Source: Escherichia phage vB_EcoM_SA20RB
DNA length: 64,000 nt
Sequence record: OL960581
Direction: 5' to 3' (one strand)
A program made the position numbers and the translations under genes. Below, in pieces: positions 17,221 to 64,000 of this stretch. Each line of letters starts with the position of its first letter. Within the stretch, counting starts at the first letter, position 1. Below the pieces are notes generated by a model that was not told the DNA's origin, searched no databases, and saw only the letters and a program-made list of their open reading frames with translations.

Positions 17221-17385
17221 TTACTCTTCTTTTTCTTTAGATTCCTCTTTTTTCTTTTTAGGAATCTGTTCAGGACCTTTATTTACTACAGCACCTGACG
17301 TTGTTCCAGTAGAGATATTTTCAGGATTACCACCTGAATCTCCAGCTACCATATCTTCTTTAATAAATTCTTTAAACGTTTTCAT
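17221..17385 (-). CDS. small lysine-rich protein (54 aa), not in ORF track
   Basis: hand-translated MKTFKEFIKEDMVAGDSGGNPENISTGTTSGAVVNKGPEQIPKKKKEESKEKEE; stop 2 nt before gene 61 ATG. Confidence 0.4.
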   Translation of the reverse strand: MKTFKEFIKEDMVAGDSGGNPENISTGTTSGAVVNKGPEQIPKKKKEESKEKEE

Positions 17386-61037: not shown

Positions 61038-61251
61038 ATTTTACTTCCTCACCAGTACCTAAATCATATTCAACTAAACGAATAGGCTCATGAATGCCAT
61101 AACCCTGAACAGAAATTTCTGTCGTAGGATAAATTCCATCAATATCACCCATATTCCATGCTTCATTAAATTGCTGTTCGCCTGAATTACTAAACCACTC
61201 GGCGAAAGCATTTAGCACATCTTTAGAACCTTCAATAATTATCTTTGCCAT
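61030..61251 (-). CDS. hypothetical protein (73 aa)
   Basis: ATG start abutting upstream stop. Confidence 0.45.
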   Translation of the reverse strand: MAKIIIEGSKDVLNAFAEWFSNSGEQQFNEAWNMGDIDGIYPTTEISVQGYGIHEPIRLVEYDLGTGEEVKYD

Positions 61252-61613
61252 TACAAACTCTCAGTAAAGGTACGAGCGATAACGTCGCGCTGCTGTTCCG
61301 GAGTTAGAGAGTTAAAGCGAACTGCATAACCGGATACACGGATGGTCAGCTGCGGATATTTTTCCGGATGCTTAACTGCATCTTCCAGAGTTTCACGACG
61401 CAGAACGTTAACGTTCAGGTGTTGACCACCTTCAATTTTAACTGTAGGCTGTTGCTCAATTTCAATTTCACGGGCATGCAAACCATAGAAAATTTCTGGG
61501 TCTACAAAAGAGTCCTCTTTAAAGGTTTTAGAGACAATAATTCGTGCTTGAATACCATCTTCAAAATAAATAGTACCTTTATGTGTGCCTTCAAGAATTT
61601 GATATGCTTTCAT
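61251..61613 (-). CDS. autonomous glycyl-radical cofactor (GrcA/YfiD-like, 120 aa)
   Basis: C-terminal about 60 aa ..[60 protein letters not shown] with RVSGY glycyl-radical motif, as recalled for E. coli GrcA and T4 Y06I. Confidence 0.75.
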
Positions 61614-61948: not shown

Positions 61949-62491
61949 TCATTGCATTCCGATTACGAAAAACTGCGGACGAGTAATACCACCAATGCAG
62001 CATTTACTATTGCAGCAGTGTTGCACAGTTTCAATATGAATATCGTAAATTTTATCCATATCAGGAGATTTAACAGGCTCATCGATTATATACAAAATTC
62101 GAGAAAGCGATAAACCTCTGAACTTGCTACCTCTATTACCAACAAAACTACGGACAGAATCAGTAAATAAACGGAATCGAATATCATCGCTAGAATAACG
62201 AGAAAATTCTTTTTTAATGCGGCCCGCAGAAATTTTAGCGTAAGCTGAAGTATTAGAAAGAACAATAACTGTTCCACCATCATACAACCAATTAGCGGCA
62301 AAATTAGTTACTGCAGTTGATTTACCAGATTGTCTGCCACCATCTAAACGAAGTGTACAATATTCTTTAAATAAATGCGACGAATCAGGTACATAAAATC
62401 CACTATTACAAATTTCTTCTACTCTAGCATCAGAATGGTGTGTAAAAGCATTCATCAGGGATAGATAAGGACCAGTTAAAAATGTTCTCAT
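61949..62491 (-). CDS. small P-loop NTPase (180 aa)
   Basis: Walker A GGRQSGKST, Walker B ILYIIDEP; ATG start. Confidence 0.5.
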   Translation of the reverse strand: MRTFLTGPYLSLMNAFTHHSDARVEEICNSGFYVPDSSHLFKEYCTLRLDGGRQSGKSTAVTNFAANWLYDGGTVIVLSNTSAYAKISAGRIKKEFSRYSSDDIRFRLFTDSVRSFVGNRGSKFRGLSLSRILYIIDEPVKSPDMDKIYDIHIETVQHCCNSKCCIGGITRPQFFVIGMQ

Positions 62492-62631
62492 TTCTTCTCT
62501 CTAAGTTTGGGCCATTCCATGGCGCATGAATTGTCCATTTCTGTATTTACCCATTACCGCACTTGGGCTCGACCTTATTACAGGTTGGCGGGAATCCCTC
62601 ACAGAATCATGAGGTCCAGGTTGTTCCCATA

Positions 62632-63105
62632 TTATTTGAACGATTTAACGTACTGAATAGAACCTTTACTATTCACGAAAGCGATTTTACCATTTTTATT
62701 ATACATGGTAGCAGTACGCTGATAGCCATAAGTTTGCTTACCAGATTGATAACCAACTAATGCAAAATTATCTTCACCCATTTTATTCTGTTTAGCACGA
62801 ATGCGTTCATGACCATGTGCCATAAGAACCTTAGCATCACCAGTTGCAATGGATCTACGAGTTTTTTCATCTTCAACTGTATTAACAAAGTCGTCAAATG
62901 AATCAAATTTAGCATGAGATTTATTATACAGTTTTCCATCTACTGCATAATTATATCCCTGTACATCCATCTCAACTTCTGTACCATCATCCAATACAGC
63001 AGTGATTTTCTGTCCTTTTTTAAATTTCAAAAGATCAGTAAAAGATTCAGCAATAATTTGAGAATTAATAGCTGCTTCAGTAATAAATTCTTGATATGTT
63101 TTCAT
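62632..63105 (-). CDS. capsid internal protein with N-terminal capsid-targeting sequence (157 aa)
   Basis: N-terminus MKTYQEFITEA matches T-even IP capsid-targeting sequence (MKTYQEFIAE); AAAGGAAA SD. Confidence 0.6.
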   Translation of the reverse strand: MKTYQEFITEAAINSQIIAESFTDLLKFKKGQKITAVLDDGTEVEMDVQGYNYAVDGKLYNKSHAKFDSFDDFVNTVEDEKTRRSIATGDAKVLMAHGHERIRAKQNKMGEDNFALVGYQSGKQTYGYQRTATMYNKNGKIAFVNSKGSIQYVKSFK

Positions 63106-63159
63106 GTGTTTCCTTTAAATATTTTAATTAGTAATCTATTTATTTAAGTAACTGTGAAT

Positions 63160-63189
63160 ATACTATCACAGTTTTAGGAGAAAGTAAAC
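63160..63189 (-). promoter_or_regulatory. T4-type early promoter
   Basis: plus atacta 63160-63165, gtaaac 63184-63189. Confidence 0.5.
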
Positions 63190-63193
63190 AACT

Positions 63194-64000
<807 letters not shown>

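Follow-up and report, generated by a model that had tools for sequence, protein, structure and literature searches.

The phage gene ip4 encodes a conserved internal head protein with a plausible role as an injected anti-defence factor

The open reading frame at 62632..63105 on the minus strand of the window, by which we mean the whole 64,000-nucleotide stretch of Escherichia phage vB_EcoM_SA20RB DNA analyzed here (record OL960581), is identified by its sequence as ip4, a named gene of T2, K3, and the RB phages. Its product is an internal head protein that plausibly, by analogy with the internal proteins of T4, enters the host with the DNA and acts against a defence. The frame comprises 157 codons (ATG at 63105..63103, TAA at 62634..62632, minus strand; ORF list and sequence) and is divided as follows:

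62632..63105, minus strand: ip4 coding sequence, for the 157-aa precursor of internal head protein Ip4 (Pfam DUF7412, PF24183; PHROG 3155)
63076..63105, minus strand: capsid-targeting sequence MKTYQEFITE, codons 1-10, with the gp21 motif I-T-E at its end and a predicted cut before A11
62632..63075, minus strand: mature Ip4* (aa 11-157), 16.5 kDa, pI 9.1, with residues 11-19 predicted to be disordered and a folded alpha/beta domain predicted from about aa 22

When the translation is compared with public records, it proves 100% identical to Ip4 of T2 (MH751506) and RB3 (NC_025419), both of which annotate Ip4 at this same position, and 99% identical to Ip4 of K3 (UniProt Q38388), which is also the match found in the BFVD structure library ('Ip4 [Enterobacteria phage K3]'). 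Public contigs that contain the exact sequence number 459, and the names it bears there include 'IpIV internal head protein' (T2) and 'Internal head protein 4'. Pfam DUF7412 is matched over residues 1-157 of a 158-position profile (E 5.7e-96; 319.4 bits against a cut-off of 27), and PHROG 3155, 'internal virion protein', with E 6e-102 and 339 bits. The protein is therefore already known and named, and the mature part, which a preliminary description made from the sequence had not recognized, is a protein that was given the name Ip4/IpIV long ago in T2, K3, and the RB phages; the assignment is correct and, at the level of sequence, adds nothing new, since public records already carry the gene under that name. 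Ip4 of T2, K3, RB3, and RB32 (UniProt Q38388, A0A2Z5WKT6) is the same protein, with the same leader and the same position between e and vs.8, and against the RB3 and T2 genes there are no substantive differences, the DNA changes being synonymous only (4 and 11, respectively). As to functional families, Pfam and PHROGs yield only DUF7412 and 'internal virion protein', NCBIfam gives only sub-threshold noise, and a PDB sequence search with Ip4 returned no meaningful match.

The genomic context agrees with this identity. On the minus strand, ip4 lies between the lysozyme gene e (63194..63688, upstream) and vs.8 (61949..62491, downstream), and 806 phage records match the 1.4-kb ip4 region, the best at 96-98% identity, so that the surrounding DNA, judged by alignment, is of the T2/RB3 Tequatrovirus type. 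Only two blocks align between the window and T4 DNA, one running from 63074 upward (the leader, the upstream region, and e) and one from 62632 downward (a G+C-rich stretch and vs.8); the leader and upstream region are the only part of ip4 that aligns to T4 ipIII and ipII DNA. Between these blocks T4 has ipIII, ipII, and denV, and the window has ip4 alone: when 61949..63193 is compared with T4 64253..66502, denV (endonuclease V), ipII, and ipIII are absent, as they are in T2 and RB3.

The preliminary description had called the N-terminus of the protein nearly identical to the capsid-targeting sequence of T-even internal proteins, and this is borne out: MKTYQEFITEA is identical at 10 of 11 positions to MKTYQEFIAEA of T4 IPII and IPIII, the sole difference being at position 9, and a six-frame scan of the whole 64-kb window found at most 7 of 11 matches in any other 11-mer, the runner-up being a 61.1-like ORF at 17221..17385. 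In IPIII, leader mutants have assigned residues 4 and 7 to targeting and residues 8 and 10 to cleavage, with L/I-X-E as the gp21 motif (PMC9026906). All four functional residues are present in Ip4 (Y4, F7, I8, and E10), and these positions are kept as Y/F4, F7, I/L/M8, and E10 in 12 of 12 close homologs. Cleavage is predicted at E10 from the I8-T9-E10 motif, which is conserved among homologs; a cut after this residue would leave aa 11-157, in agreement with the 147-aa mature part proposed earlier from the 157-codon frame. Ip4 thus has the features of a T-even internal protein, namely a capsid-targeting sequence with residues 4 and 7, a position in an ip locus, and the shared promoter and ribosome-binding-site cassette.

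Packaging itself has been observed for a close relative. CsCl-purified virions of the Klebsiella phages ValerieMcCarty03 and 04 were analyzed by LC-MS/MS in a 2026 study, in which gp127/119, an 'internal virion protein', was recorded with 66/66 spectra and listed beside the gp128/120 lysozyme (PMC13119998). VMC263_127 is the gene directly after e in ValerieMcCarty03, and its product is 70% identical to Ip4 of the window. The mass spectrometry proposed in the preliminary description thus has an answer at the level of this ortholog, which is physically present in purified virions as expected of an internal protein with a capsid-targeting sequence; for the exact Ip4 sequence packaging is predicted by homology, and we found no virion proteomics of a Tequatrovirus that carries it. 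In the deposited peptide table for phage 04, peptides of the ortholog extend across residues 13-147, and no leader peptides are seen. The peptide LATVGVMTESVGSNLLK begins after R12; this start and the missing leader peptides are consistent with removal of a 10-residue leader, and are not proof of it. We also considered a second gp21 site at residues 18-21, which would give a 20-residue propeptide, on the basis of a conserved hydrophobic-X-E|S/A motif there and an ordered fold that starts right after it. Full cleavage at this site is disfavoured because LATVGVMTESVGSNLLK crosses it and neither the semi-tryptic SVGSNLLK nor any other peptide starting at S21 was recorded in the ortholog's virion spectra; partial cleavage may occur.

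Beyond the leader, Ip4 is unrelated to the internal proteins of T4. With leaders removed, BLASTP of mature Ip4 against mature T4 IPIII gives E 5.2 over 21 residues, which is no homology, and against T4 IPI E 14; identification as an ortholog of either is accordingly rejected, and the alignment with T4 IPI, IPII, and IPIII that had been suggested as a check shows that this is not an ordinary IPIII. True IPIII orthologs occur in 261 other phage records. T4 IPIII nevertheless resembles Ip4 in its setting, as it occupies the slot directly after e, has the same early promoter, the same ribosome-binding site, and the same 10-residue leader with one substitution, and is basic when mature; it is packaged, cleaved by gp21, and an inhibitor of the two-gene GmrSD of E. 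coli ECOR17, with a mature part unrelated to that of Ip4. T4 IPII (Ip2), an inhibitor of GmrSD/BrxU of E. coli ECOR21, likewise shares locus, promoter, ribosome-binding site, and leader, and its 90-residue mature protein is unrelated in sequence; ipII is absent from the window. T4 IPI* (Ip1), which inhibits GmrS/GmrD of E. coli CT596, is a small basic injected protein whose compact alpha/beta fold is peculiar to it, packaged by its leader and cut by gp21 after I-T-E, the motif also found in Ip4. Ip4 shows no sequence or fold similarity to any of these known GmrSD inhibitors.

We considered whether ip4 is an allele that takes the place of ipIII. This is rejected because Klebsiella phage pKp20 has both in one locus, in the order e, ip4 (69% identical), denV, ipIII, a 100-residue ORF with the same leader, and vs.8. 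ValerieMcCarty03 also carries ip4 plus other ip genes, with ip4 following e and preceding another ip gene, after which the place of vs.8 is taken by a gene annotated 'putative IpIII internal head protein'. Ip4 is a module of the internal-protein locus, not an allele.

T4 ipIII and ipII, and more loosely ipI, have upstream regions that can be aligned with the 90 bases preceding ip4. The expression signals in and beyond these 90 bases are:

63109..63116, minus strand: ribosome-binding site AAAGGAAA, common to T4 ipIII and ipII in the upstream alignment
63160..63188, minus strand: putative T4-type early promoter TTTACT-N17-TAGTAT, conserved before ip4 and T4 ipIII, ipII, and ipI
63170..63153, minus strand: inverted repeat TGTGA-N8-TCACA, overlapping the -10 region and also present before T4 ipIII, ipII, and ipI
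63702..63722, minus strand: two late-promoter motifs TATAAATA (at 63722 and 63709) upstream of e, the only ones nearby in a motif search

The inverted repeat before the ip genes presumably resembles a CRP-type pair of half-sites, with unusual spacing. The early-promoter sequence fits TTTACW-N17-TAYWAT, the early consensus reported for the T4/PST phage group (PMC4122927), at 11 of 12 positions; it lies below the threshold of a generic sigma-70 scan, and the promoter is accordingly proposed from its conservation. Late synthesis, which loading into the prohead requires, probably occurs by read-through from the late promoters of e into ip4; the late motif TATAAATA is found only upstream of e, and no terminator-like site was found on the minus strand between the two genes.

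To judge how widely and under what constraint Ip4 is kept, its distribution was examined by tblastn. It is present in 470 phage records, about 306 of them at 95% identity or more (Escherichia, Shigella, Yersinia, and other hosts) and about 160 at 60-80% identity (Klebsiella, Salmonella, and Serratia hosts), and in about 290 of them it hardly varies. Jiaodavirus Mineola and Gelderlandvirus UTK0003 retain the order e, ip4, vs.8, and identity between these genera is 69-71% for Ip4, 66-68% for lysozyme e, and 57-66% for RegB. Against T2, ip4 has 11 synonymous and 0 non-synonymous changes and gene e has 17 and 1; against RB3 the counts are 4 and 0 for ip4 and 16 and 3 for e. A profile search of 1.84 billion representative proteins gave seven matches, all T4-like phage contexts or fragments, in which the only new distant members are three metagenomic proteins, 34-36% identical, each of which has retained a leader site of the form F-L-N-E|S or S-L-N-E|S. 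The contig of one belongs to a distant T4-like phage, and another is encoded directly after a denV-like gene. A profile match to a 1879-aa repeat protein (E 3.6e-5 over a 20-residue stretch) was treated as spurious. On these comparisons, Ip4 is an old and slowly evolving component of this genome region and among the most conserved internal proteins, and the expectation in the preliminary description that it would be highly variable is therefore contradicted. Two Klebsiella records depart from the pattern: the homolog P0014 of vB_Kpn_AM_K5 has an unrelated C-terminal tail after residue ~132, from a frameshift or assembly error, and the 261-kb record of vB_Kpn_AM_K6 has a 66-residue partial match. 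Both are probably assembly artefacts.

These data also bear on whether the frame is functional at all. As the leader and upstream region are a recombination handle common to ip genes, it could be supposed that the leader similarity is a recombination scar on a non-functional remnant. We regard this as scarcely credible, and indeed refuted, by the selection seen against T2 (no non-synonymous change beside 11 synonymous ones), by retention of the full length in 470 genomes, by a confidently predicted fold, and by the ortholog peptides found in virions. The fold was predicted with AlphaFold2 for residues 11-157 from a 15-sequence alignment (pLDDT 86.3, pTM 0.82). In the model, residues 11-19 are disordered and are followed by an alpha/beta domain of strands, three middle helices, and a C-terminal four-stranded sheet. 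No catalytic motif conserved across the family was found, nor any enzyme fold or enzyme-like structural relative of the model. The predicted compact single domain would thus fit a binding protein better than an enzyme, and the fold gives no functional lead.

Taken with what is established for T4, these features suggest a pathway. Early transcription of the gene would start at its own T4-type promoter, and late transcription would reach it by read-through from the e promoters; the 10-residue leader would bind the precursor to the prohead scaffolding core, and the prohead protease gp21 would then cut after Glu10 (I-T-E), leaving a basic 16.5-kDa protein in the head with the DNA. At infection Ip4 would exit the head together with the DNA, and in the cytoplasm it would most likely bind and block some first-line defence against glucosyl-hydroxymethylcytosine DNA, whether a host nuclease or another system. 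The identity of the protein, its leader, its conservation, and the presence of an ortholog in virions are established; use of the promoter, the cut at E10, and injection are suggested by the homology of the leader, and the anti-defence target by analogy with T4 Ip1, Ip2, and Ip3 only. For the whole pathway, a head-packaged and injected inhibitor of a host first-line defence, we consider the chances to be even.

The precedents are specific. Ip1 inhibits GmrS/GmrD of strain CT596 (PMC3012670); IPIII is required on ECOR17 and works leaderless when made in the cell (Srikant et al.); and Ip2 blocks GmrSD/BrxU of ECOR21 and Ip3 the two-gene GmrSD of ECOR17, with no cross-protection (Silas et al. 2025, PMC12373910). 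In the proposal of these authors, everything encoded at the two ip loci (e-vs.8 and tRNA-57B) targets GmrSD variants (PMC12373910). Ip4 shares promoter, ribosome-binding site, and leader with ipI, ipII, and ipIII and sits in one of these two loci, the three characterized members of which each inhibit a distinct GmrSD type IV nuclease, and a compact single domain that, in the model, has no enzyme-like relative fits a binder. An anti-restriction role can thus reasonably be extended to Ip4 from Ip1-3 (PMC12373910), and an injected anti-defence role is plausible on this analogy. Against an injected inhibitor stand the lysozyme-like rate of evolution and the near-invariance of Ip4, which are unlike the arms race expected with a hypervariable nuclease family.

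The direct evidence concerning GmrSD is negative. When ip4-10 were screened against further GmrSD variants there was no reproducible interaction (PMC12373910, Suppl. Fig. 9), where the screen's 'ip4' is equated with the present Ip4 by name only; we found no other screens in the literature that include ip4. T2 is restricted by both GmrSD-ECOR21 and GmrSD-ECOR17 (PMC12373910), and since T2 encodes Ip4, the protein does not neutralize either. Given these two results we do not file Ip4 among the GmrSD inhibitors, and in the literature searched we found neither a paper that assigns it a function nor a main-text mention of it. A tentative version of the inhibitor reading, which we hold to be possible and somewhat doubtful, is that Ip4 inhibits a defence outside the tested GmrSD variants, either a different modification-dependent nuclease or an early DNA sensor; such a defence would be common to Escherichia, Shigella, Salmonella, and Klebsiella. 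If true, this would account for Ip4 being more widespread, and slower to evolve, than any other internal protein.

The same negative results would also suit an injected Ip4 that acts on a conserved non-GmrSD target across the Enterobacteriaceae, which could be another DNA-sensing defence or a housekeeping protein engaged in early takeover. Conservation in phages of Escherichia, Shigella, Salmonella, Klebsiella, Serratia, and Yersinia suggests a conserved partner, and Alt is a packaged T4 protein that acts in takeover and not by nuclease inhibition (PMC9026906). The tested GmrSD variants are, however, a fraction of GmrSD diversity, and no enzyme fold or catalytic motif was found in Ip4; we rate such a target as distinctly improbable.

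The main rival to an anti-defence role is one in head assembly or DNA packing, in which Ip4 would be a basic, abundant head filler that aids core assembly and neutralizes or organizes DNA, with no specific host target. Mature Ip4 is basic, with a pI of 9.1, like IPII and IPIII (9.6), and its lysozyme-like divergence, near-invariance in Tequatrovirus, and conserved place beside e in three genera fit a housekeeping function. As the only ip gene at the locus here, ip4 may supply the bulk internal protein, and the spectral counts of its ortholog in virions are high. In T4, IPIII mutants assemble heads at half the rate with a 40% burst, and internal-protein lysines contact DNA phosphates (PMC9026906, PMC3012670). 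IPIII is nevertheless also a specific GmrSD inhibitor despite this morphogenetic phenotype, so the two roles are not mutually exclusive; T4 does without Ip4, and triple IP-null T4 grows on laboratory strains, showing that no internal protein is structurally essential (PMC9026906); and Ip4 is predicted to be a compact folded domain, not a disordered polycation. A mainly structural function therefore seems unlikely to us, and an injected inhibitor of a first-line defence remains our preferred reading.

Since 2025 a target has been known for every one of the three T4 internal proteins, in each case a different GmrSD type IV nuclease. Among the remaining internal proteins compared here Ip4 is the most frequent, found in 470 phage genomes where IPIII is found in 261, and it is the only ip gene at the e-vs.8 locus in T2-type phages, conserved across phages of several clinically relevant hosts. 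Its target would reveal a widespread anti-T-even defence, or else show that some 'internal proteins' are structural, and either outcome bears on host-range prediction for therapeutic T4-like phages. If the inhibitor reading is true, Ip4 would also define a new inhibitor structure, since its modeled fold has no known relative.

Directly 3' of ip4 lies a second conserved feature:

62492..62631, minus strand: G+C-rich conserved element of 140 bases, between the ip4 stop and the vs.8 start, outside the protein and at the putative 3' boundary of the ip cassette

The element has a G+C content of 47-48%, against about 35% around it and in the genome, and is found by blastn in 1032 phage records. It aligns with T4, where denV instead lies upstream of it. 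Unrelated phages have copies of a 43-base core, CCCGCCAACCTGTAATAAGGTCGAGCCCAAGTGCGGTAATGGG, that are 88-95% identical, including Vequintavirus Murica and Pseudomonas phage PsgM04F, where the core lies in unannotated or doubtfully annotated DNA beside tRNA genes. An 18-mer from the core occurs on 30 IMG/VR contigs, and among one genome each of 185,579 species of bacteria and archaea it has two matches only, both lacking the flanking helix and downstream conservation; bacterial genomes are thus essentially devoid of the element. In ValerieMcCarty03 it occurs twice, behind each of two successive ip genes.

A hairpin immediately 5' of the core is enclosed by a 5-bp helix that occurs in seven fully complementary versions in the same register: GGGAA/TTCCC, GGGAG/CTCCC, AAAGG/CCTTT, AAAGC/GCTTT, AAAGA/TCTTT, GGAAC/GTTCC, and GAATG/CATTC. 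A possible eighth from the same scan, TGCGT/ACGCG, is not fully complementary by Watson-Crick or G-U pairing, and a GGGG/CCCC variant offset by one base was spotted by eye. RNAalifold predicted four helices from 13 T4-like copies of the element, and in the structure supplied for scoring, which consisted of these four helices and an inner hairpin added by eye, 94.7% of cells were paired. Its covariation score exceeded those of all 500 shuffles and all slid controls, with covariation confined to the one 5-bp helix and the other helices invariant. The single-sequence fold was no more stable than those of shuffles. Neither an Rfam match nor, with ARAGORN, a tRNA was found; these results, and the alignment of the element to the annotated 5' end of T4 vs.8, led us to reject the ideas that it is a tRNA, belongs to a known Rfam family, or is what is left of denV. 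It may delimit ip cassettes on their 3' side, act as a terminator or processing structure, or be a small RNA in its own right, and an undescribed structured RNA is possible.

This bears on the annotation of T4 vs.8 (NC_000866, 64253..64912), which is given as 219 aa and starts inside the element, the element supplying its first 39 codons. In the window, the T4 vs.8 frame (62501..62602, minus strand) starts with GTG and ends with TAG nine bases before the ATG of a 180-aa vs.8; vs.8 is annotated at about 180 aa in RB3 and other genera, and the Murica core has no start codon in the vs.8 frame. The first 39 codons of T4 vs.8, to judge from these comparisons, are probably not coding.

Three further genes of the window deserve mention. 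The vs.8 product (61949..62491, minus strand) has a P-loop, GGRQSGKST, and shows weak similarity to large-terminase N-terminal ATPases (PHROG 2 with E 1.6e-6, and Pfam Terminase_6N with E 0.018, which is below the cut-off). The vs.6 gene (61251..61613, minus strand) encodes a 120-aa autonomous glycyl-radical cofactor of the GrcA type, ending ...RVSGYAVRF..., which is 98% identical to T4 vs.6 and 83% to a Klebsiella phage homolog and is the most conserved gene in the stretch. Finally, the 61.1-like frame that was runner-up in the leader scan (17221..17385, minus strand; 54 aa; PHROG 1823) occupies the position of T4 61.1, flanked by primase gene 61 and spackle, and begins MKTFKEFIKED, which matches the capsid-targeting sequence at 7 of 11 positions and includes an I-K-E gp21 motif; from this resemblance it might be another packaged peptide.
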